Below, in pieces: positions 149 to 55,254 of a DNA stretch of 64,000 nt. The stretch is from Octopus vulgaris (lineage: Eukaryota): NCBI GenBank assembly GCA_951406725.2, contig OX597822.1, forward strand, positions 108,686,001 to 108,750,000, written 5' to 3'. The notes beneath the pieces were generated by a model that did no database searches, was not told the DNA's origin, and saw only the letters and a list, made by a program, of their open reading frames with translations. Position 1 is the stretch's first letter, and each line of letters begins with the position of its first letter. Position numbers and translations under genes: made by a program.

Positions 149-215
<67 letters not shown>

Positions 216-418
216 AAGTAGATAAATGAATTATCTTATTACGGATAATTCAAATGATAACCGATACCTGGGTAGCAAAAATCACAACAGAAAAGGCACG
301 GTTGAGGTTACGACCATGGGGCCTAAAATCCGTGCCTTTGTGCGGAAAATTGAAGTTTATATATTTAGTGTAGGAAGAAATGGAGCTGAACGAAGATTTA
401 ACAAAATTCCTTTTTATT

Positions 419-504
419 ATTTACTACTTATGTTTCAAAGGCTGCAAAGTCTCTAATTCGGATTTAATAAGGAGTCCATTTTGCAGCCTTCTCTTCAGGA
501 AAAT
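419..504 (-). ncRNA. Type I hammerhead ribozyme (left arm)
   Basis: Minus strand reads attttc-CTGAAGA-gaaggctgcaaa...tttgcagccttt-GAAA-cataag-TA-gtaaat. The core is intact and stem II is long; stems I and III each carry one mismatch. Confidence 0.75.
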
Positions 505-742
505 CCAGGAACTTAATTCTCCAACAAAATGCACAGCAAGCTTTTCAACAAACGCTCACGAGGAGCCCATGGAATAAATGGCACAAACTGTCTATCTATA
601 TGCCTTGACGCCAGGCTGGGTGAAAGCAGACGAGAAGGTCCGTTGAGATAGATAGACAGTTTGTGCCATTTATTCCATGGGCTCCTCGTGAGCGTTTGTT
701 GAAAAGCTTGCTGTGCATTTTGTTGGAGAATTAAGTTTCTAG

Positions 743-826
743 ATTTTCCTGAGAAAGGCTGCAAAATGGACTCCTTATTAAATCCGAATTAGGGACTTTG
801 CAGCCTTTGAAACATATGTAGAAAAT
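743..826 (+). ncRNA. Type I hammerhead ribozyme (right arm, 1-nt core deletion)
   Basis: attttc-CTGA(-)GA-aaggctgcaaa...tttgcagccttt-GAAA-catatg-TA-gaaaat. Stem I is attttc/gaaaat, stem III is the palindrome ACATATGT, and the cleavage triplet is GUA. Confidence 0.75.
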
Positions 827-866
827 AATAAACAGGAATTTTGTTAAATCTTCGTTCCTACACTAT

Positions 867-1229
<363 letters not shown>

Positions 1230-5555: not shown

Positions 5556-6624
5556 AAATGATATTGATAAATGGATGAATGAAACTTAATGACTGCGTAT
5601 TAAAATAAACATAATGTACAATTCAGCCGATTTTAATATAACCGTATTTACGTTCCTAACTATTTACCTCAATAGATTTATATATATCAATCCGTTGTTG
5701 TACATAGTCAGTTGTATCTACCAATCTGCCTCCATATCTGTTCCTTTTATCAAATACACATGATTTAATTTTCAATACTTGAGCACCATGTATCTTCGCT
5801 TTCAGTCTTGTTGAATCGTTTTGTCATTTGATTTTCTTCTTCCCTGCTATTGCTTTCAAGTCATCCGTTACCTATGACATCATATTCTTCCTATTGTTTC
5901 ACGTCATCGATTTCGCTTCATAGTGGGATCTATTTAAATGAGAAATACGAAAACTGCGGAATATGCATTTGAAGTTAGGATTAAAAACGCCGGTTACAAA
6001 ACAAAAGATACAGGTGTTTAGAAAGATAATAAGACGCAAAACTGTATTGCCCTTGCTGTCTCTTCAGCATGATTTAAAAGAAAAATATTTCTAACACTAA
6101 AGGATGTCTTTTAAAGCAGAATGTACTTTCAAAAACTGTTTGTGATATTTGAACCTACATTGTATAATATTTAGTCCATGGTATTTGCAAACATATTTAG
6201 GTATATTTCGCATATTGTTTAAAAGCGTAGACATCCATATTTAAATGTTCTGCCAAATCACCAAAGTATAGGCTTCTACAACATTTTAATTACTTATTTT
6301 CAGAAATTTCTTCACATTCTCCCTTTATATTCTTGAGTGTCGCTAAAAAAGAATATACTATTTTACCTCTTTGATTAATATACGTAATGTAATTAATTCA
6401 GAATATGGTCAAATGCAGCATTCAGTACAACCTAACTAACTGAATTATCTAAATCCATGTCATTTTCCCATTTCATTTCTTTTCTTGCAGTTCATTTTAT
6501 GGTAGAATTTGACGGTAAATTTTATACGTCTCCAATGGTTCTCCCGCTGTGTTGGCATATCCCTGAGAAGTGTTAGTCTCTCATTCTCTAACATAAATTC
6601 CGTATAATATTACTCGTTTAATAT

Positions 6625-7001
6625 TTTAGTTTTTATTTGTTTCAGTCATTTGACTGCAGCCATTCTGGAGCACCACTTTTAGTCGAACAAATCGACGCCA
6701 GGACCTATTCTTTGTAAACCTAGTACTTATTTTATCGGTATGTTTTACCGAACCGCTAAGTTACGTGGACGTAAACACAACATTGGTTATCAAGGGATGG
6801 GGGTGGGTCAAACACAGACACATACATTTAAACACACGACGTTGATTCTTTCAGTTTCTGTCTACCAAATCCACTCACAAGGTTTTAATCGCCCCGAGGC
6901 TATAGTAGAAGACACTTGCCCAATATGCTATGCAGTGGAACTGGACCCGGAACCATGTGGTTGGTAAGCAAACGACTTACCATACATCCACTTCTGCACA
7001 T
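6625..7001 (-). mobile_element. Octopus tRNA-derived SINE (46001-type family)
   Basis: Reverse-complement match to the copies at 42009-42380 and 46001-46400 (gtctaccaaatccactcacaagg, gtttcagtcatttgactgc). Confidence 0.9.
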
Positions 7002-21092: not shown

Positions 21093-21430
21093 TCTATCTT
21101 CTATCTTTTACTTCTTTCACTCGTTAGAATGCAGCCATACTGGTACACCACCTTGAATAATTTTAGATGAGTGACTCGGTCCCAGTACTTTTCGTTGTAA
21201 GCCTGTATTTATTGTATCGATTTCTTTTGCCAACACAATTTACTAAGTGGTGATGGGTGAAACAAACGCAGGGAGAATGTCACACACACACACACAGACA
21301 CACATACACACATATATACAAAGGTCTTCTTTGAATTTCCGTCTACCAAATCCACTCACAAGAATTCGGTGGGCCTGATGCTATAGTAGGACATACTTTC
21401 TCAAGCTGCCTCGCGGTGGAACTGAACAAG
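21093..21430 (-). mobile_element. Degraded tRNA-SINE (46001-type)
   Basis: Contains ccgtctaccaaatccactcacaag and a similar tail. Confidence 0.8.
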
Positions 21431-22049
21431 GAAAGCTAAAAAATATTCAAACATTATTGGAGGTGAAAGTATTGAATATAAACAATACAAAATGCAGTAC
21501 TTATTTTATGAGCTAGACAGGTACGTGAAGTGTGAACGGTGAGGAAATTTATTTGTGTAAATTTGGAGCAAGTTTTCCATAACCATTGGAACATGCAAGT
21601 TTGCTATATATTCGCATATATTCTACATTTAAGCGTTATTCCGAAAGCAAATATGACAGTATAATGCTATGATTGATTAATGAGGTGTATATTAAACGTC
21701 AAACATGTTACTCTTTTTAAATGAACGATTAACAGTGAATAATGCAAGGAAATTTTACTTTAGACGTTTTCAGAAATGAAACATAATATACGACTTCAGA
21801 TATAATTAGGTGCTTAATTTAAAATGACCTGAAAAAATTTTCCTCTCTTCATATTGTTTTCCTGAATTCGTAGGTGTAAATAATAGGAAACGAAGCAGTA
21901 ATTATTTTAAGATTTATAATGTGTGTGCTTTGTATTGTGTTTCTTAAATCAATAATCTGTCAGATGATGTTTTGTGTTATTCTTTGTAGATGGGTATATA
22001 ATTAACGTGGCATTTGTGTTTCATGGTTCTCTCTGTAAAAGGAGCTACT

Positions 22050-28724: not shown

Positions 28725-29092
28725 CATGACTGTGTTGTAAGATGCTTGCTTCTCAACCACATAGTTCAGGATCATGTCCTGCTGCATGTGATGTTGATTG
28801 TCTTCTTCCATATCCTCGGGCCGACCAACACGTTAGGAGTCGATTTTCAGAAAGAAACCGAAGTACGTCGTATATACATATGACTGTGTGTATTTCCCTA
28901 CATCTACGCGCGTGAATCTTTGTGATTGTGTTTTTCTTCGACTGACTCCTGGTGGCTGGTGTTGGTTTTATACATCCACACACCGTAGCGTTTCGCCACA
29001 ACATCTTGATAAATTAAGTAAAATACTTTAATAAAACTATACACTCATGTAGGTTTCTTTGCGGCAGTGCTCCGCCATGGCTGCATTCCGAT
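28725..29092 (+). mobile_element. Old diverged tRNA-SINE (46001-type)
   Basis: tgcttgcttctcaaccacatagttcagg...cgggccgaccaac...cagtgctccgccatggctgca is collinear with 46001-46400. Confidence 0.7.
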
Positions 29093-34856: not shown

Positions 34857-34903
<47 letters not shown>

Positions 34904-35160
34904 TTTATTTAAAGCAGCTGAAAATAAAATTAGAAATAAAGAGTTATATTCCTGTTTGGATTCGCTGACATAGAAATTAATTCATTCCATTTAAACACTT
35001 CCTAAAAAAAATATTGTGTGAAAAACCAGTAAAGAAAAAAAAAAGATTCAGATGTGGCTGTCCATGTTGTTGTTGTGAAGCAGCTGCCAGAATATCAGGT
35101 GCCTTGTACAAGGTGGAGCCCTACTAAAAACCATCGGAAATATCGCCAGGTATACAACAG

Positions 35161-35395
<235 letters not shown>

Positions 35396-35511
35396 CAATT
35401 AAGGAACGGCCATAATGGCCATTCACCCACTAGAAATAACAGCCAAAGCTTCTACCGCAAATAAAGATCAATTCCGTAAACAGGAGAAAATTAAAAAACA
35501 TTTACCCTGTA

Positions 35512-35618
35512 ATTTCTTGTACGGTATACCGTTTCATCTGCTGTTTAATGGCAAACTAACCTGATTAAATTAAATCAAGCCAATCTTCCATAAGCCCTCA
35601 GATTCTTCAGCAAGAAAT
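35512..35618 (-). ncRNA. Type I hammerhead ribozyme, unit 1
   Basis: Reverse complement of 36908-37014. Confidence 0.9.
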
Positions 35619-35995
35619 AGCTCAAGTCGGAACAGATATTTACACGAGGCATACCCAATCCTGCCAAGGCAATATCTGACCTAAAATTTTCAAATCGTCG
35701 CACTCGCGCCAAATTTTTCGGCAGCAAATAAATCGTCGATTCCATTACGGAATTAACCAAAAAATTCATAATTAATCAATATAGGGTGGCAAGGAAAATT
35801 TTGTAGAATTTTTTGCCACCAGCGGCCCAGTGGGAAAAAATTAAATAGTCATAGACCATTTTTAAGTTCAACATTAACAATTAAGGAACGGCCATAATAG
35901 GCCATTCACCCACTAGAAATAACAGCCAAAGCTTCTACCGCAAATAAAGATCAATTCCGTAAACAGGAGAAAATTAAAAAAACATTTACCCTGTA

Positions 35996-36102
35996 ATTTC
36001 TTGTACGGTATACCGTTTCATCTGCTGTTTAATGGCAAACTAACCTGATTAAATTAAATCAAGCCAATCTTCCATAAGCCCTCAGATTCTTCAGCAAGAA
36101 AT
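35996..36102 (-). ncRNA. Type I hammerhead ribozyme, unit 2
   Basis: Reverse complement of 36908-37014. Confidence 0.9.
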
Positions 36103-36480
36103 AGCTCAAGTCGGAACAGATATTTACACGAGGCATACCCAATCCTGCCAAGGCAATATCTGACCTAAAATTTTCAAATCGTCGCACTCGCGCCAAATTT
36201 TTCGGCAGCAAATAAATCGTCGATTCCATTACGGAATTAACCAAAAAATTCATAATTAATCAATATAGGGTGGCAAGGAAAATTTTGTAGAATTTTTTTG
36301 CCACCAGCGGCCCAGTGGGAAAAAATTAAATAGTCATAGACCATTTTTAAGTTCAACATTAACAATTAAGGAACGGCCATAATAGGCCATTCACCCACTA
36401 GAAATAACAGCCAAAGCTTCTACCGCAAATAAAGATCAATTCCGTAAACAGGAGAAAATTAAAAAAACATTTACCCTGTA

Positions 36481-36587
36481 ATTTCTTGTACGGTATACCG
36501 TTTCATCTGCTGTTTAATGGCAAACTAACCTGATTAAATTAAATCAAGCCAATCTTCCATAAGCCCTCAGATTCTTCAGCAAGAAAT
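36481..36587 (-). ncRNA. Type I hammerhead ribozyme, unit 3
   Basis: Reverse complement of 36908-37014. Confidence 0.9.
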
Positions 36588-36907
36588 AGCTCAAGTCGGA
36601 ACAGATATTTACACGAGGCATACCCAATCCTGCCAAGGCAATATCTGACCTAAAATTTTCAAATCGTCGCACTCGCGCCAAATTTTTCGGCAGCAAATAA
36701 ATCGTCGATTCCATTACGGAATTAACCAAAAAATTCATAATTAATCAATATAGGGTGGCAAGGAAAATTTTGTAGAATTTTTTTGCCACCAGCGGCCCAG
36801 TGGGAAAAAATTAAATAGTCATAGACCATTTTTAAGTTCAACATTAACAATTAAGGAACGGGCAGGATTGGGTATGCCTCGTGTAAATATCTGTTCCGAC
36901 TTGAGCT

Positions 36908-37014
36908 ATTTCTTGCTGAAGAATCTGAGGGCTTATGGAAGATTGGCTTGATTTAATTTAATCAGGTTAGTTTGCCATTAAACAGCAGATGAAACGGTAT
37001 ACCGTACAAGAAAT
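36908..37014 (+). ncRNA. Type I hammerhead ribozyme, inverted copy 1
   Basis: Stem I atttcttg/caagaaat (8 bp); core CTGAAGA at 36916-36922; stem II atctg/cagat with an extended hairpin; GAAA at 36991-36994; stem III ACGG-TATA-CCGT; GUA cleavage site at 37004-37006. Confidence 0.92.
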
Positions 37015-37392
37015 TACAGGGTAAATGTTTTTTTAATTTTCTCCTGTTTACGGAATTGATCTTTATTTGCGGTAGAAGCTTTGGCTGTTATTTCTAGTGG
37101 GTGAATGGCCTATTATGGCCGTTCCTTAATTGTTAATGTCGAACTTAAAAATGGTCTATGACTATTTAATTTTTTCCCACTGGGCCGCTGGTGGCAAAAA
37201 AATTCTACAAAATTTTCCTTGCCACCCTATATTGATTAATTATGAATTTTTTGGTTAATTCCGTAATGGAATCGACGATTTATTTGCTGCCGAAAAATTT
37301 GGCGCGAGTGCGACGATTTGAAAATTTTAGGTCAGATATTGCCTTGGCAGGATTGGGTATGCCTCGTGTAAATATCTGTTCCGACTTGAGCT

Positions 37393-37498
37393 ATTTCTTG
37401 CTGAAGAATCTGAGGGCTTATGGAAGATTGGCTTGATTTAATTTAATCAGGTTAGTTTGCCATTAAACAGCAGATGAAACGGTATACGTACAAGAAAT
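37393..37498 (+). ncRNA. Type I hammerhead ribozyme, inverted copy 2 (1-nt deletion in stem III)
   Basis: As above, but ggtatacgta replaces ggtataccgta. Confidence 0.85.
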
Positions 37499-37720
37499 TA
37501 CAGGGTAAATGTTTTTTTAATTTTCTCCTGTTTACGGAATTGATCTTTATTTGCGGTAGAAGCTTTGGCTGTTATTTCTAGTGGGTGAATGGCCTATTAT
37601 GGCCGTTCCTTAATTGTTAATGTTGAACTTAAAAATGGTCTATGACTATTTAATTTTTTCCCACTGTGCTGGTGGCAAAAAATTCTACAAAATTTTCCTG
37701 CACCCTATATTGATTAATTA

Positions 37721-37782
<62 letters not shown>
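37721..37782. repeat. (TA)n microsatellite (right flank of the HHR array)
   Basis: Directly visible. Confidence 0.95.
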
Positions 37783-37784
<2 letters not shown>

Positions 37785-37820
37785 ATGTATGTATATATGT
37801 ATGTGAGTATATATGTATAG

Positions 37821-37913
37821 ACTTTTTTGCTGCTTTAAATAAAGCATATTACTCTACCACTGGTATTGAGTACTCTTTTTGTCCACCTTGTTTCACATTT
37901 ATGTGTTTACTCC

Positions 37914-37916
<3 letters not shown>
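37821..37916 (+). mobile_element. Short terminal fragment of a TA-associated repeat
   Basis: Island between TA tracts; shares a 16-bp inverted match with 34903-34918. Confidence 0.45.
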
Positions 37917-37948
<32 letters not shown>

Positions 37949-38501
37949 CAGAAAGGACGTTAAATGGGTATTGTAAATAGGAACTACACATAAGCTAGTG
38001 TCTGGTATCGAAGCACTATTTAAAGAAAAGTATTGAAAGAAAAGAAAACGTTATCGTTTCTTAGATTTTCTGAATGAAATATGTTATAATCAGGAGCTAA
38101 GATGAAGAAGAGGTGGGTAAAGGCTGAATAGGGCGACTATAATATCGAATGCGTAGCTAAGGCAAGTAAATCATAGGAGTGTTCAACAGAATTAATATAC
38201 ATAGAATCATCCCCAATTTTGAGCTGGAACATTGCCAACATATTAAATATATATAGTGTCTTTCAGAAGACAAATATGGGAACGTGTGTGAGTGTGGGAG
38301 TGTATGTGTCAGTACATCTCAGTATTTGCTTCTTTCTTTGTCTGTGTGTGTGAGAAAGTATAAAGGGATTGATTTGTATGTACATATGCATATACGAATG
38401 GATGGTACATCAATTTAGCAGTATTTTCCCAGTAGGTTTCCTGCAAAAGTTTAAATTACAAAGAATATGTATTTCTTATATAATATTATTTTATTCATTC
38501 A

Positions 38502-38911
38502 ATCTTTTATTCTATTTGTTTCAGTCATTTGATTGCGGTCATGCTGGAGCCCCGCATTTAGTCGAGCAAATCGACCCCGGGACTTTATAAGCCTAGTAAC
38601 TATTCTATCGGTCTCTCTTGCCGAACCGGTACGTGGCGGGGACGTAAACACAGCCGCATCGGTTGTCAAGCGATGTTGGGGGAACAACACAGACACACAA
38701 ACATATAAATACATACATACATACATACACACATGCATATATTTATATATACATATATATATATAAATATATATAAAATATATATATATATATATATACG
38801 ATGGGCTTTTTTTCAGTTTCCGTCTACCAAATCCACTCACATGGCTTTGGTCGGCCAGAGTCTATAGTAGAAGATACTAGGCCAATGTGGCATGCAGTGG
38901 GACTGAATCTG
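38502..38911 (-). mobile_element. tRNA-SINE (46001-type), head truncated
   Basis: Reverse complement of 46060-46400 with an internal TA/CA expansion. Confidence 0.9.
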
Positions 38912-42008: not shown

Positions 42009-42380
42009 ATGCAGGAGTGGCTGTGTGGGTTCAGTCCCACTGCGTGGCATCTTGGGCAAGTGTCTTCTGCTATAGCTCCGGGCCGACCAATGCCTTGTGA
42101 GTGGATTTGGTAGACGGAAACTGAAAGAAGCCTGTCGTATATATGTATATATATATATATATGTGTATGTGTTTGTGTGTCTGTGTTTGTCCCCCTAGCA
42201 TTGCTTGACAACCGATGCTGGTGTGTTTACGTCCCTGTCACTTAGCGGTTCGGCAAAAGAGACCGATAGAATAAGTACTGGGCTTACAAAAATAAGTCCC
42301 GGGGTCGATTTGCTCGACTAAAGGCGGTGCTCCAGCATGGCCGCAGTCAAATAACTGAAACAAGTAAAAGAGTAAAAGAG
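42009..42380 (+). mobile_element. tRNA-SINE with internal deletion in the tRNA head
   Basis: Highly similar to 46001-46400 but lacks ~35 nt between gtgtgg and gttcagtccc; (GTAAAAGA)n tail. Confidence 0.92.
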
Positions 42381-42419: not shown

Positions 42420-42700
42420 ACCAGGATTTCTGACGTCATATTCACATCCTCTCCTGAAGAAGCTGACGGAATATTCACGACGTCAATGACAGGGACATGA
42501 ACATAAAGTTCATAATAGAACATCCCGACATCACTGGATCACTATCACTACCTGAATTCAAACTGAATATGACCGAAGTAAAACAGATCCGCACCAAATT
42601 CTACAGGAAAGCAGCCAGTAGAGATATGATTGTCCGATACATTTCGGCACTTTCACTCGGTGCCAAAATAGGATACGACAGAAATGAACTTGCACTTATT
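42420..42700 (+). pseudogene. Penelope-like element RT (YxDD region plus thumb) relic
   Basis: RISDVIFTSSPEEADGIF (decayed RYVDD), then a frameshift to NIKFIIEHPDITGSLSLPEFKL...TKFYRKAASRDMIVRYISALSLGAK, matching the PLE IKFT.E....L.FLD...T..YRK.T....L.Y.S.HP pattern. Confidence 0.75.
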
Positions 42701-43544
42701 TATCTCTTCAGAGCTTTCAAATTCTATGTGAAAGGATGGCCCGATCGTAAAATTATTAATTCAAATGTCTATGTATATGAGCGATCGTGAGCGTCAAATT
42801 TTCACATACATAACCATAACATAGAAAAAAAAACAACAGAATTATAAGAGACAAAATAATTAAGTAAATAGTATCAACACCTATCGAAATATATTTCTAT
42901 ATATCTCAAATAATATTAATCCATATAAGTATATAAATTATGCATCATAGTCTAAAACTGTAATAAAACGTTTAAATAAATAGAAATGATAATACAGTGC
43001 TATATTAGTAATATATACTAACTCTTCTCTTTTATTTACTGATATAAAAAAATATTTAAAGCAACAGAAAAAAGTGTTCTTTATTTACTTAGTTTATCGG
43101 AGGGCGAATTCCGTAATAAATATGAAGAGAATATTAGAGCTACGATAACTACTAACTATATTACCTCATAAATATAGAGTTAAGCTATAATAATGTATAT
43201 CGAAGCATTACTATTTTTTCAGAAGTACAAAATAATGAAGTTACGTAAATAAGGGTTATTCACAGTCACAAACAAGTAAATGTCTATATATATACCTATA
43301 TTATATAAGGGAGGACTCAGTGAATAAAATAAAGTAACATATACGAAAACAAGGATTGAGAACCTATCCACGATAAGACCTAAACAATATTATATTTTAG
43401 ATAAAGGACTATAAATAGAATATATCCAAATATTATTGATTCTTTCAGAAATAACACAATTATATTGTTGAGATAAAAATAAAGTTATAAACTATATAAT
43501 ATACAAGAATTATTACTGTGGTTATTAAATTTAGTATGTTTAGT

Positions 43545-45345
43545 TTAGTATGCTGTCTGGTCCGTCCTCCAATTCGCCATATTTTTCCAAGCAATCGCTC
43601 AACATTCGATGCAATACCAAATAGGTTCATACATTCCATAATCCAAGAATGTGGGAACATATCGTACGCCTTATGATAGTCGATTCGCGACGTGGCTAAG
43701 TTACTTTTCTTCCTCTTGCAGTCTCTAAGTAAAATTTTGTCAATCAGGAGCTAATCTTTGGTACCTCTGCACTTAAGCTTGCAACCTTTCTGCTCATGTG
43801 GAAGGACTCCTTTTTTCCCGATTCTCGTGCATTGACTCTTTGGGTATTCCAGTCAATAACATCCACATAAGTAGCAAACAGGATATCGGCCTGTAATTAT
43901 CTATCGTATTGCCTTTTTCGATGTTTTTTCATGTACAGCACTGTCCTATCTAATGTCAACCACTCTGCTGTTACTTGGTCGTCTTTTAATAAGATGTTGC
44001 TCATTTTTTTAATAATCTCCTTCACTTTCCTCATTCAAATAACTAGTTCTGCCTGTTTTGGACAGACACCTATTTGTTTCAGTTCTTGCAACCATTCAGC
44101 ATCCTTCTTGTGCTCCTTGTCTTTGCTCCAGATGTCACTCCAAACACTTGAATTTCATTGTTATCTTGTATTAACTTTTCATCTGTACATTCTCCATTTA
44201 CTTCTTTATAGAATATCTTGTGATCTACTCTGAATAACCTATTCTGGTGGTAATCCTTCATTCTTTGGTCGTATCTTACCATCTCTGATTTCTTCACAAC
44301 GAGGCGCTGTTTCAGTTTCTTCATTACAACTTCCAGACCCTTTCCTTCAATATTATAATTCCATTTAAGCACCCTGTATTTTTGGTCGTTTTTAAGCTCC
44401 CCTTTTTCGTTTCGGTTTCTGACAGAGATTTCCTTCGAGAGCATGTCTAACTCTGTTTGTATTCTTCTTTTCCACCATGAGTCTTTTCTTTTGTCACTCC
44501 CATTATATTTCTTTTCCTTGACATCAACATTCACGTTTTCTGCTACAACAATACTTGCTGCATTGATTAAATTATGTTTCTGTGATGTTTGGTCTGATGT
44601 ATTTCAGAATTTCATTGGCATTTTTCGTTTCATGGTTCAATTTCCATCGATCAACCTTTTTAAGGTTGCAAATAATGTCGCTATCATTCTTCTGTAGTCT
44701 TCTCTCGTAGATTGCCTTTTTTTCATCTGTAATGAACATCATTAGTTTTATTGTCTTCTTTTAGATCATCTATATGACCCCCATCAAGTAAACTACCACT
44801 GCTCTTTTACACTGCTATGAGATTACTCTTATTTAGAAGTACTGTATTTTCATCGTTATCCCTGTTGCATTTTCCAAGACCCGTCTTTTGATAGCTTCGA
44901 ACTCTACTTCTGTGAACTAACGATTTTTTCTTATTGCTCTTGCTTGATCACATAGTCTCTGTTCCGTGAGTTGAAACAATCTGTTTCTCTCCAATTATCA
45001 TACATATGTTGTCGATAACCCCTGATTTAAGCAACATGTTGACCTATCGGGCTGCTCAAGTAGTAACTCTCCATGTCCACAGCATTAATTTGCTTGCTCC
45101 ATCTACGCCACGTGTGGTGGTCCCTTTCTGGATATCGACAAGCTGGAGCCGAACCAGAATATCTGAGCCCGCCGGGTGGAACACTGTCACCATCATAGGC
45201 TTCAGTTTCCTTACCACTGTTATTCACAATATTTTGTCTTTTCATTGCCACTCTAATGAGGTAGGGATTACCAGTGTTTTTATTGTGATACCATCACTAG
45301 GTGTATCGCTAATCAGTCCTTGGTAGTCTCCACCCGTTTCCTGTC
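43545..45345 (-). pseudogene. R4/Dong-clade non-LTR retrotransposon, 5' part to mid-RT, decayed
   Basis: Minus strand: QRLCDQARAIRKN, WWKRRIQ, YHQNRLFRVDHKIFYKE, NYRPISCL, EQKGCK...GTKD, IDYHKAYDMFPHSWIMECM. The 5' end abuts (ATT)n. Confidence 0.9.
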
Positions 45346-46000: not shown

Positions 46001-46400
46001 AGGTGCAGGAGTAGCTGTGTGGTAAGTAGCTTGTTTACCAACCACATGGTTCCGGGTTCAGTCCCACTGCGTGGCACCTTGGGCAAGTGTCTTCTACTAT
46101 AGCATCGGGCCGACCAATGCCTTGTGAGTGGATTTGGTAGACGGAAACTGAAAGAAGCCCGTCATACATATATATATGCGTGTGTGTGTTTGTGAGTCTG
46201 TGTTCGTCCCCCTAGCATTGATTGACAACCGATGCTGGTGTGTTTATGTTCCCGTTACTTAGCGGTTCGGCAAAAGAGACCGATGGAATAAGTACTGGGC
46301 TTTCGAAAGAATAAGTCGCGGGGTCGAGTTGCTCGATTAAAGGCGGTGATCCAGCATGGCCGCAGTCAAATGACTGAAACAAGTAAAAGAGTAAAAGAGT
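46001..46400 (+). mobile_element. Full-length Octopus tRNA-derived SINE
   Basis: Head ggtgcaggagtagctgtgtggtaagtagcttgtttaccaaccacatggttccgggttcagtccc; central CA/TG tract; (GTAAAAGA)n tail; at least 5 related copies in this window. Confidence 0.93.
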
Positions 46401-47000: not shown

Positions 47001-47211
47001 ACTGAGACAATAGGAGAAACTGTGCTTTGTATGGTAGTAAATTTGTTTTTTCATGATTATTTTCTTTAAAAGCCGCTTTCCTTCAAGTCGTTCACAGGTT
47101 CCTTTATCCCATTCCACCAATGTCATTAGATTATTTTTGGAATGGGATAAAGGAAGAAATAGAAGACTTGAAAGAAACTGTTTTTTAACGAAAATAAGCA
47201 CGAAAACGAAA

Positions 47212-47213
<2 letters not shown>

Positions 47214-47275
<62 letters not shown>

Positions 47276-48679: not shown

Positions 48680-49038
48680 CATATTTACACACATATATAT
48701 ATATATATACTCGCATTATCGATAAATGATACATGCACACACACACACATATATATATATATTTGTGTGTGTGTGTTTGTGTGTGTGTGTGTTTGTGCGT
48801 GGGTGTGTGTGTGTGCGTGTGTATTTAGTGTGCTAGATGTGGTGTACAGATATTGAGTATTAGAAAAATTCACGAAAATTTTTGAAAACAGACCTTGTAT
48901 TTATTCGTTATTATTAGGGCTTTCGTTCTTCTTTTGAACCTGTAAAATGGAATTCTATTTTACAAATTCGATAAACGAACGAAAGCGGTAATAATTTTCC
49001 ATAACGTTGGTGACCTTTTTGTCTCTATCTCTCTCTCC

Positions 49039-51570: not shown

Positions 51571-51758
51571 TTAATGTGATATGAAATTCTGGTATGATAA
51601 TTAAAATCTTATGATTAAAATATAACCTACATACAGTAGAACTAATATAAAAGCCTTCATTGTTCACAATGAAGGTTTTGATATTAGTTCTACTGTCTGT
51701 AGGTTATATTTTAATCATAAGATTTTAATTATCATGCCAGAATTCCATATCACATTAA
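51571..51758. repeat. Long near-perfect palindrome (93-bp arms, 2-nt loop)
   Basis: 51571-51663 pairs with 51666-51758 with ~5 mismatches. Confidence 0.95.
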
Positions 51759-52328: not shown

Positions 52329-54046
52329 CTCAGAATATATCTTAATTGCGTTTAGCTACGATTTCATTCTCCTCTTGCTAAAGTATTGAAGTGGAAGCCA
52401 CTAAGCAATTGCTAAAGATCATAGATTCTAAATAAACATTTTCCTTTTTCAACAGGTTTACCAAATTCTCATTCAATTCCATAGTACATATTCAGGCATA
52501 GTTGTAGTAAAAATAAAAATTATAGAAGTCTTTCTGTAATGCTGTAATTTTCCTCAACTGTTAAATATTTTAGTTGATTTTTAATGAACTAACGTTGACA
52601 CGAACTCTTATGTCATTAATCCATTAATACTAACACATTGTTAAAAGCTATTACTTAACAGTCAGTAATTATTTATTGCATGGGTCTTTAAGGCTGTAAA
52701 AGTCTAACTAGATACAACTATTGAAGACAACACAATGTTAATCGAAACATAATTCGTTTCTATTTTCTATGCTTTTATAGGAGAAAGCTTCTAACATATT
52801 TTATTATTAGTAAACTTCATCAATAACTCTTCAAAGTCACTCGCTGTAACTTAAGACTTGAGAATGACAAAGTTTAAGAATTTAAGCTGTCTGGAGAGAA
52901 AAAACTGAAGGTGTTTAGAGAGTCAATGCCGTAGCAACCTAATGCAAGTTCTTAAGCTTGTAAATGTAGGTGCCACAGTGTTATAAATACAAGATAATGC
53001 ATCAGTAGAATGTTCAACATTTATCTTCCTGGTTTATCTACCTTGAAGATTCTCATATAACTCGTAATGATAAAAGATCACCAAAAACCAAATATAAAAT
53101 AAATTTATCCCACGCGGAATACAAAGTTTTTCTGTGTTTAAATAACATTTGTATGGTGTCAAAAATTAAACCTGAATGTGTGCGTTTTTTGGTACTGATT
53201 TTTAGCGTAGCAAAATTTTCATGGTTTAGATAATTCAAATGTCTATCAAACAATAAGACATCAGCATTTCCCATACTTTACTAACATTTGACAAGTCATT
53301 AACCGACATATTTACACAGCAGTGACTGACATATCAGAGAACTACATACTATTACCAATAGTACAGTTTATTCATATGTGTTCCGAGAACATTGGAATGC
53401 CGACCATTTCGTTGGTTGTAAATGCGAGTTCAATTTCCATATCAACTTATTAGTTCGAATTTGACAAAGTTCACATGCAACGGGTGAAGTTAACGTCATT
53501 ATAGAGTTATTATAGAGTCGTCTGCCAGACGTAGATTTCGTCTGTATTCAAGTTTGTATATTGTAGATGACAGCTCTTTCGTAGGAATAATGTGATATCC
53601 CAATTAATCACTATTTATCGTGCCGTGACGTGCAGACAGAATATATTGGTAAAATATAGATTTTAAAGCGTATGTGATTTGATACTAAGAGGGTAAAAAA
53701 AAAATGCGTATGTGATTTTGATATTAAGGCGATAACAAAAATAAAAATCGCATGAGATTTTGATACTAAGTGCATAACGAAAAATACTAAATAGGGAAAG
53801 GAAAGCAGTTGATTATCATTAAAAGATAAATTTCTAAATATTGGGAATTAATAATAGTTGAAATTGGTTGTCTACTCATGTTCGATAAATCACTTCTCCC
53901 TGTCTGGCTTACCTATTAACTATACAATCTAACATGTGTTCCTTGTGGTTGTAAAGCTAAAAAATAATGCAGTTCTATATTTAAGAGATGATGAGTTATG
54001 TATATTATTTACATTTGACGGGTATTTTTCCTCATGTTGATGTTTT

Positions 54047-54092
54047 AACACAATGTTTTGGCTGATATATCCGCCAGCCCTCATCAGGTGCC
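54047..54092 (-). ncRNA. Degenerate minimal hammerhead (left arm)
   Basis: Minus strand: ggcac-CTGATGA-g-ggctg...cagcc-AAAAC-ATT-gtgtt. G12 and the stem III G are mutated, in a CpG-decay pattern. Confidence 0.55.
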
Positions 54093-54309
54093 TTGGGGAA
54101 ATTTCGAACCTGGGTTCTCCTTCCTAAGGTATTTTTCGATGTTATTATTATTATAGAAATTATTATTATTTTTCAGGTCACTGCTTGGTATCGAACTTGG
54201 AATCTTGGGGCTGGTAGCCCACGCTCTTAACCGCTACAGGTATATGGTGTAGAAGTTAAGAGCACGGGCTACTAACCCCAGGAATCCGAGTTCGATTCCA
54301 GGAAGTGAT

Positions 54310-54355
<46 letters not shown>

Positions 54356-54444
54356 TTAATAATAATAATAATAATAATAACGATAATAATAGTAACTTCG
54401 AAAAATACCTTAGGAATGAGAACCCAAGTTCGAAATTTTCCCAA

Positions 54445-54490
54445 GACACCTGATGAAGGCTGGAGGGTATATCACCCGAAACGTTGTGTT
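54445..54490 (+). ncRNA. Minimal PLE-type type I hammerhead (right arm)
   Basis: gacac-CTGATGA-a-ggctg...caccc-GAAAC-GTT-gtgtt. Stem I gacac/gtgtt; palindromic AACGTT stem III; stem II has one mismatch relative to the left arm. Confidence 0.7.
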
Positions 54491-55254
54491 AACAAACAAG
54501 ATGAGAACAAATATCCGTCAAATGTAAATAATGTAAAATATTAATAATCCCCTGATCGTCTTAAACAGCAGATGCACAACTGTAAAATTGTGTGATGCTC
54601 AATACCCTTACCATTTCAAATCTTCATTTCAAATATATTTTCGGTGGTGTGGTGTTGATTCGTTTAGCAAGAGAAAAACATTATCTAAACTGCTGGACTA
54701 AGATTTGTTTTGATTGTGATATAGATTACCTATATATATATATAACCCTGTTCCTACATAGTGGATAACGCAATTTGATTCTCATCTATAAAGTAACATT
54801 TAAGTTACTTAAATTACAAAAGGAAGCGAAGTAAAAATATTAAGGCAGGAGTCTTCACGCTTTGCGAAGCATGCTGTGAAAGGAAGTTGCGACCAATGTT
54901 CTCATTTCACACTCTGCTCCCATTAAAAAACAATTACTATATTGTTAATGAAGTTTGCAACGCACTTCGCGAAAAAAGGATGACAGGAATGTCAATGACG
55001 GAACCCCTCTTTACCAGTGCAGTGTTCCATCAAAACGGCGATGGTGTAATATAGCCGAAAGAAATTAAATTTGTCCTTGAATTGTAGCAAATACTACTCG
55101 ATTGCGCTAAATGAAAAACGAATCAATCTATTTATATACAACTGATCTTTCCGTATATCATGCATGCCATCGCAAAATATTTGCATTACTAGACTACATT
55201 TTTGAGGTAATCTATCTGATATGTTGATATAGTAAAATATCTAAAACCAGGTTC

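Follow-up and report, generated by a model that had tools for sequence, protein, structure and literature searches.

A head-to-head pair of hammerhead-bearing tandem arrays within (TA)n of the Octopus vulgaris genome, possibly formed by priming from both ends of a break

The stretch of Octopus vulgaris DNA analysed here (the window; 64,000 nucleotides of contig OX597822.1) is AT-rich and dense in microsatellites. In the assembly sequence as given, it contains an insertion built from a 485-bp non-coding unit, which is repeated in two near-identical arrays joined 5'-to-5' at position 36861 (Table 1). Taking window positions 35878-36362 as the reference unit, numbered 1-485, we measured arms of 3.03 and 1.78 units, in agreement with the roughly 3.0 and 1.8 rounds proposed in the initial annotation. 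The arms are 99.7% identical over 757 bp; the inner copies differ by a single substitution, and the outer copies show single-base losses, mostly at homopolymers. The GC content is 0.37 in 36001-37000, with a unit period of 485 bp. No stop-to-stop frame of at least 100 aa lies inside 35403-37720, and the unit is thus non-coding; the frame scan also found no ORF in the insertion of the kind that encodes the reverse transcriptase (RT) and GIY-YIG domains of an autonomous Penelope-like element (PLE), and no poly(A) is present at the insertion. Outside the arrays, two pieces of a 27-bp motif, 89% alike, lie at 34898-34924 and 37820-37915 and point inward from both sides, the outer end of each piece being at a (TA)n tract. 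These pieces are probably fragments of another microsatellite-targeting family.

Table 1 Features of the window, with positions counted from its first letter.
Feature	Position	Strand	Details
(TA)n microsatellite with TATG interruptions	35165-35394	.	Left flank, presumed target
Left arm	35393-36861	RNA sense on -	3.03 units, 1469 bp; 3' end at unit 483
Overlap of left 3' end with (TA)n	35393-35394	.	TA, 2 nt; unit 483
Type I hammerhead core, copy 1	35520-35610	-	Predicted cut after 35520
Type I hammerhead core, copy 2	36004-36094	-	
Type I hammerhead core, copy 3	36489-36579	-	
Unit position 159	36521	+	C in 5/5 copies covering it; family mostly T
Head-to-head junction	36861	.	Unit 14 meets unit 272, with a single G in common
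Right arm, inverted	36861-37721	RNA sense on +	1.78 units, 861 bp; 3' end at unit 375
Type I hammerhead core, copy 4	36916-37006	+	Three-way junction fold
Type I hammerhead core, copy 5	37401-37490	+	Stem III one base short (37487; GG read as G)
Overlap of right 3' end with (TA)n	37719-37721	.	TAT, 3 nt; unit 375
(TA)n microsatellite	37719-37819	.	Right flank, presumed target
Older head-to-head pair, other hammerhead-like family	214-864		Arms 369-599 and 648-864, ~90% alike
Minimal hammerhead-like motif, by eye	926-1100	-	3' side at (TA)n 864-929; missed by the scan
Older inverted pair	54001-54535		Arms 54001-54238 and 54248-54535; 87% and 77% alike in parts
Short palindromes	51571-51758, 47035-47219, 48910-48995		Arms 93, ~87 and ~45 bp; 73-93% alike
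SINE-like dispersed family or families	6603-6999, 21116-21433, 28730-28895, 38484-38907, 42027-42362, 46003-46381		68-95% alike
107-aa frame	42467-42787	+	By eye, resembles a decayed PLE-type RT thumb
174-aa frame	44079-44603	-	By eye, decayed non-LTR retrotransposon protein; Pfam 0

A motif scan recovered one type I hammerhead per unit, three on the minus strand in the left arm and two on the plus strand in the right arm, and of the five cores four are intact and one is a base short in stem III. In copy 4, stem I has 8 bp, stem II has 5 bp and carries a long hairpin insert, and stem III has 4 bp; the local minimum free energy (MFE) fold is a three-way junction, and the centroid lacks stems I and III. 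Rfam at the gathering score gave 0 hits. A relaxed hammerhead scan gave seven matches, five of them in the array, compared with 0-1 in each of ten shuffles. The predicted cut falls between unit positions 127 and 126, and all five predicted cut sites are crossed without insertion, one of them with a one-base loss 3 nt away. Folded as a circle, the ribozyme strand of the unit has a predicted MFE of -145.5 kcal/mol (z -6.3, 60 shuffles), the opposite strand reaches z -3.3 (60 shuffles), and a hairpin at unit 11-29 has z -3.6. Since the hammerheads lie on the minus strand in the left arm and on the plus strand in the right, the outer ends correspond to 3' ends and the junction joins two 5' ends, as had been proposed for a pair of cDNAs joined at their 5' ends. 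That the strand which folds well also carries the hammerhead suggests an RNA intermediate and makes a DNA rolling-circle (HUH) origin (compare PMC10288648) less likely.

The two outer ends lie 108 nt apart on the unit, at distances of 129 and 237 nt from the hammerhead cut on its 3' side, which bears out the earlier description of ends about 100 nt apart, neither at the cleavage site and both AT-rich and merging into (TA)n. Their overlaps with the flanking microsatellite measure 2 nt and 3 nt; at random ends, overlaps of at least 2 and at least 3 nt have probabilities of 0.225 and 0.067, jointly 0.026 for a pair of features chosen post hoc. The AT content of the 15 nt at the two ends is matched by 18% and 3% of unit positions, and both ends fall within predicted unpaired regions (a level reached by 8% and 11% of positions). 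The ends had also been called permuted, which stands insofar as they map to different unit positions, although two ends of one locus cannot show permutation. Unequal outer ends are akin to the "tail" described for PLEs (PMC8557442), but the difference here is 108 nt and the PLE tail, an optional feature, measures 30-40 nt.

At the inner junction, different unit positions were said to meet with at most ~1 nt of microhomology, and we indeed find only G36861 common to both arms, an overlap (at least 1 nt) expected in 45% of random joins and hence at chance level. A 3-nt GGC overlap lies one register off, requires one extra G and is likewise at chance level (0.17 over three registers). The 226 bp beside the junction (36635-36860) have no mirror partner, and both inner ends are within predicted G+C stems, with P(unpaired) at most 0.01. 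The left arm stops ~16 nt past exactly three rounds (36846-36861), within the hairpin at unit 11-29 and just ahead of its own start site, where synthesis may have been blocked.

The unit belongs to a large, varied, high-copy family. At least 20 of the 24 sequencing runs listed, from nine studies with three organism labels, hold part of it, and none of those listed is recorded as RNA; four of the 20 unit-holding runs (X1, X2, X3 and X5) were aligned to one unit, X1 and X5 being covered to about 76% and 80%. The aligned contigs number at least 6192 (X1), 13292 (X2) and at least 3756 (X5) and contain many variant sites, their depth being no measure of copy number, and the runs may stem from other individuals or species. 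Contigs at least 99% alike to the unit number at least 1251, 3331 and at least 1350, respectively, i.e., 20-36%. At unit position 159, T makes up 99.6, 93.9 and 91.9% of the summed depth in X1, X2 and X5 and 94% in X3, percentages that express summed depth rather than copy number, in runs that may represent other individuals or species. All five hammerhead copies of the insertion share the family-minor C, and both arms therefore derive from one template lineage; they are clearly not two random family members. Either they go back to a single RNA molecule or a single source locus, or one of them served as the template for the other. In the run contigs, a joint stepping back by 485 reports only tandem or circular continuity of the unit. 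Scans for other loci gave 0 exact matches in metagenome contigs (two patterns), viral contigs and genome contigs.

In X3, which we take by guess to be RNA, 13 of the 27 changed places are T>C on the plus strand, equivalent to A>G on the ribozyme strand; the three large runs have T>C at 20 of 97 changed places (Fisher p 0.007 versus X3, with thresholds that differ with depth). The A>G changes of X3 cluster at window positions 36541-36672 and 36288. Eight of these T>C sites have one and the same depth (22.8, as in record 24), and seven of the eight are below 0.2% in each of the three large runs. ADAR enzymes prefer U or A as the 5' neighbour. All eight equal-depth sites have a 5' U or A, as do 68% of all A, and pairing of the candidate edited sites shows no clear excess (6/8 above 0.5, versus 0.60 for A in the span). 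The cluster looks like candidate A-to-I editing. The change at unit 159 likewise reads as A>G in the ribozyme sense and follows a U, a single transition that proves nothing.

The window also contains older elements of related layout. The pair at 214-864 lies between (TA)n tracts at 148-213 and 864-929, with a 48-bp spacer and a 14-bp deletion in the right arm; the hammerhead motif matches on the left arm and is degenerate on the right. The left arm of this pair may extend to 214, repeating the unequal-end layout. In the pair at 54001-54535, a hammerhead-like motif faces outward by eye only, and the arms contain an (AAT)n tract. We counted these two older head-to-head pairs with outward hammerhead-like motifs in favour of double priming. 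No ribozyme motif was found in the three short palindromes, of which that at 47035-47219 ends in (TTA)n. No tRNA genes were called for the SINE-like repeats. The 107-aa frame returned no match in Pfam or the PDB; in Atlas it matches PF26215 clusters at 0.93, but recognition is low and this is a lead only.

Judged by its unit, ribozyme motif and copy number, the insertion belongs to the non-LTR retrozymes and to a family with many copies. We favour, with a probability of roughly one half, mobilisation of its non-autonomous RNA in trans by a Penelope-like RT/GIY-YIG enzyme that primed from both ends of a break. Beyond the observed layout, ends, ribozyme motif and shared allele, the enzyme cut, priming, RT passage and joining are steps that we infer. 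The enzyme would cut both strands inside the (TA)n tract, and each 3'-OH would prime a cDNA at an internal, AU-rich and poorly paired RNA site (unit 483 and 375), helped by at most 2-3 base pairs between primer end and RNA. Each RT would then run past more than one unit, a monomer circle being a somewhat likelier template than an uncut multimer transcript, until both stop at G+C hairpin stems (unit 14 and 272). The two cDNA ends would finally be united by end joining with a 1-nt overlap. The two cDNAs would share a template, either a single RNA molecule or the transcripts of a single source locus.

Several properties described for PLEs are relevant to this proposal. In vitro, both DNA strands are cut and extended by the anole PLE protein, which prefers AT-rich DNA and starts internally, by subtraction ~85-92 nt past its hammerhead cut (PMC11167929). 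According to the same source, the start site used by this PLE in vitro has no homology to the cut DNA, and uncut RNA is the main template. In many PLE insertions an inverted 5'-truncated copy is present and one end bears a tail of 30-40 nt; (TA)n is a favoured target (PMC8557442). A proposed retrozyme cycle has tandem cDNA made from circular RNA by a PLE RT (PMC7229834; its Figure S9 presents the retrozyme model and may bear on double-primed circles), and retrozymes co-occur with and resemble the pLTRs of PLEs (10.64898/2026.07.22.740005), where eight of nine Xenopus dimers were reported without cleavage in vitro. Since the PLE tested needs no homology and mainly uses uncut RNA in vitro, and since eight of nine dimers remained uncleaved, neither AT microhomology nor a circle is required. 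Of the initial annotation's claim of double priming by AT microhomology, the geometry and the shared allele fit, but the microhomology amounts to only 2 and 3 nt, and a fold-back fits too. Among the 6 joints and the 12 of 17 gapped joints listed for the aligned runs, none changes strand and none corresponds to 36376 joined to 36634, and none of the 24 of 218 loose ends listed reaches (TA)n; this search is weak because the contigs are ~80 nt long (mostly 70-110), the family is high-copy, and rare variants drop out. No autonomous PLE partner was found in this analysis of one locus.

A possible, though on balance doubtful, origin of the right arm is a fold-back, in which the left cDNA of 3.03 units would have turned at unit 272 (36634), copied 861 nt of itself and joined (TA)n by microhomology. 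The identity of the arms and their shared minor allele would follow automatically, and the right arm is indeed shorter than the copyable stretch (mirror range 35774-36634). The sole left-arm variant in that range, a T7 run reduced to T6 at 35809, has a counterpart at the mirrored position 37682, as expected of a fold-back, although the A7 run of left copy 1 is also shortened, and the mirrored T6 may be a consensus error; the remaining differences of the right arm have no mirror counterpart. At the turn itself, a 3-bp GGC/GCC pairing is available one register away and the right arm begins beside a TGCC-NN-GGCA mini-hairpin, but the in-register overlap is 1 nt only, the 3-nt overlap is at chance level (0.17), and the junction has no palindrome, its spacer of 226 bp being unpaired. 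The copy would also end 380 bp short of the left end, at what in this reading is the AT-richest spot. For PLEs, head-to-head repeats have been interpreted in print as products of self-priming (PMC3846280).

Returning to priming from both break ends, a stricter form would have the two ends primed in turn on one circular retrozyme RNA, with multi-round RT by strand displacement and the A-to-G change at unit 159 as a fixed A-to-I edit; as a combination, we regard this as unlikely and hold it tentatively. If one circle was used, the left RT would have started first, because it covered 608 nt more than the right one and would have been unable to pass it.

It is improbable that the structure is an assembly artefact, i.e., a fold-back chimeric long read that joined two separate family loci. 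The single-base losses of the outer copies do resemble a noisy long-read consensus, and the junction was unseen in four runs, whose contigs are short; the best run holds 72% of the sampled words. However, the 2-kb flanks are unmirrored except for 27 bp, and the minor allele common to both arms argues against a two-locus misassembly: the second locus would have to share this allele and be 99.7% alike over 757 bp, where 20-36% of family contigs reach 99%. The older head-to-head pairs in the window, with 87-94% arm identity, cannot be read chimeras.

Later growth of a short head-to-head PLE-type insertion (~1.03 + 0.78 units), each arm being expanded by unequal crossing-over or slippage, appears quite improbable. 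Local tandem amplification of pLTR-like units is discussed in 10.64898/2026.07.22.740005, and the copies are alike enough to recombine, but both arms would need to have grown separately before diverging (1 substitution among the inner copies), and the left arm would still exceed one unit. Under such expansion, the unit counts would carry no information on the number of RT rounds. Twin priming of the classical L1 type would use one linear multimer, the second primer annealing at the point where synthesis of the first cDNA had ended. This reading shares the arm orientation and microhomology at the second priming site (PMC11702581), but we consider it very improbable: L1 breakpoints are often close (1-10 bp deletions in 22/32 and duplications in 10/32; PMC11702581), whereas the locus has a gap of 210 or 360 nt, or an overlap of 125 or 275 nt, and no poly(A), and the abutting form is largely excluded by the 210/360 nt gap.

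Compared with known systems, the insertion shares with the animal non-LTR retrozymes described in PMC7229834 and 10.64898/2026.07.22.740005 a low-GC, non-coding unit that is repeated in tandem and carries a single type I hammerhead, a self-paired circular fold and many copies. Its 485-bp unit exceeds the 150-450 bp of PMC7229834 and is within the 51-972 bp of 10.64898/2026.07.22.740005. Unlike the animal retrozymes described in these sources, it has a long stem II hairpin and two arrays placed head-to-head; the main text of PMC7229834 nowhere uses the word "inverted". With EN+ PLE insertions (PMC8557442, PMC3846280, PMC11167929) it has in common an inverted 5'-truncated copy in head-to-head orientation, a (TA)n target, an RT start that lies inside the RNA and downstream of the hammerhead, outer ends that differ, and a target duplication that is unreadable within (TA)n; it differs in the absence of an ORF, in having multiple units in both arms, in the 108-nt end difference and in the lack of a junction palindrome. 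L1 twin priming and two-L1 bridges (PMC11702581; 10.1101/2024.08.27.596794) extend both break ends by RT and end-join the cDNAs at their 5' breakpoints, as proposed here, and two L1 cDNAs joined in this way are on record (10.1101/2024.08.27.596794), but here poly(A) is lacking, the breakpoints do not abut, and the template is a repeated unit. Non-autonomous elements of Chlamys such as MRC1 (PMC8557442) are likewise non-coding PLE parasites with multi-copy head-to-tail insertions, although most Chlamys elements lack hammerheads and they belong to another kingdom.

The head-to-head layout is typical of PLEs and in itself no surprise. What is new is that five hammerhead copies share a family-minor allele, and in the literature searched (few subscription papers, no supplements) we found no multi-unit two-armed retrozyme insertion and no double-primed circle. 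The text of PMC8557442 states that the origin of tandem and inverted PLE insertions is unresolved, and a circular retrozyme template is so far a proposal (PMC7229834). If the two cDNAs were read in turn from one circle, the locus would preserve in the genome the trace of double-primed rolling-circle RT by a PLE enzyme, and the head-to-head repeats of PLEs would be explained without self-priming. One locus is insufficient for this distinction; start sites, arm lengths and arm haplotypes across loci separate double priming from fold-back, and a circle from a multimer. A young, high-copy family that keeps both its outer ends and its inner junction makes the mechanism testable by counting across loci.
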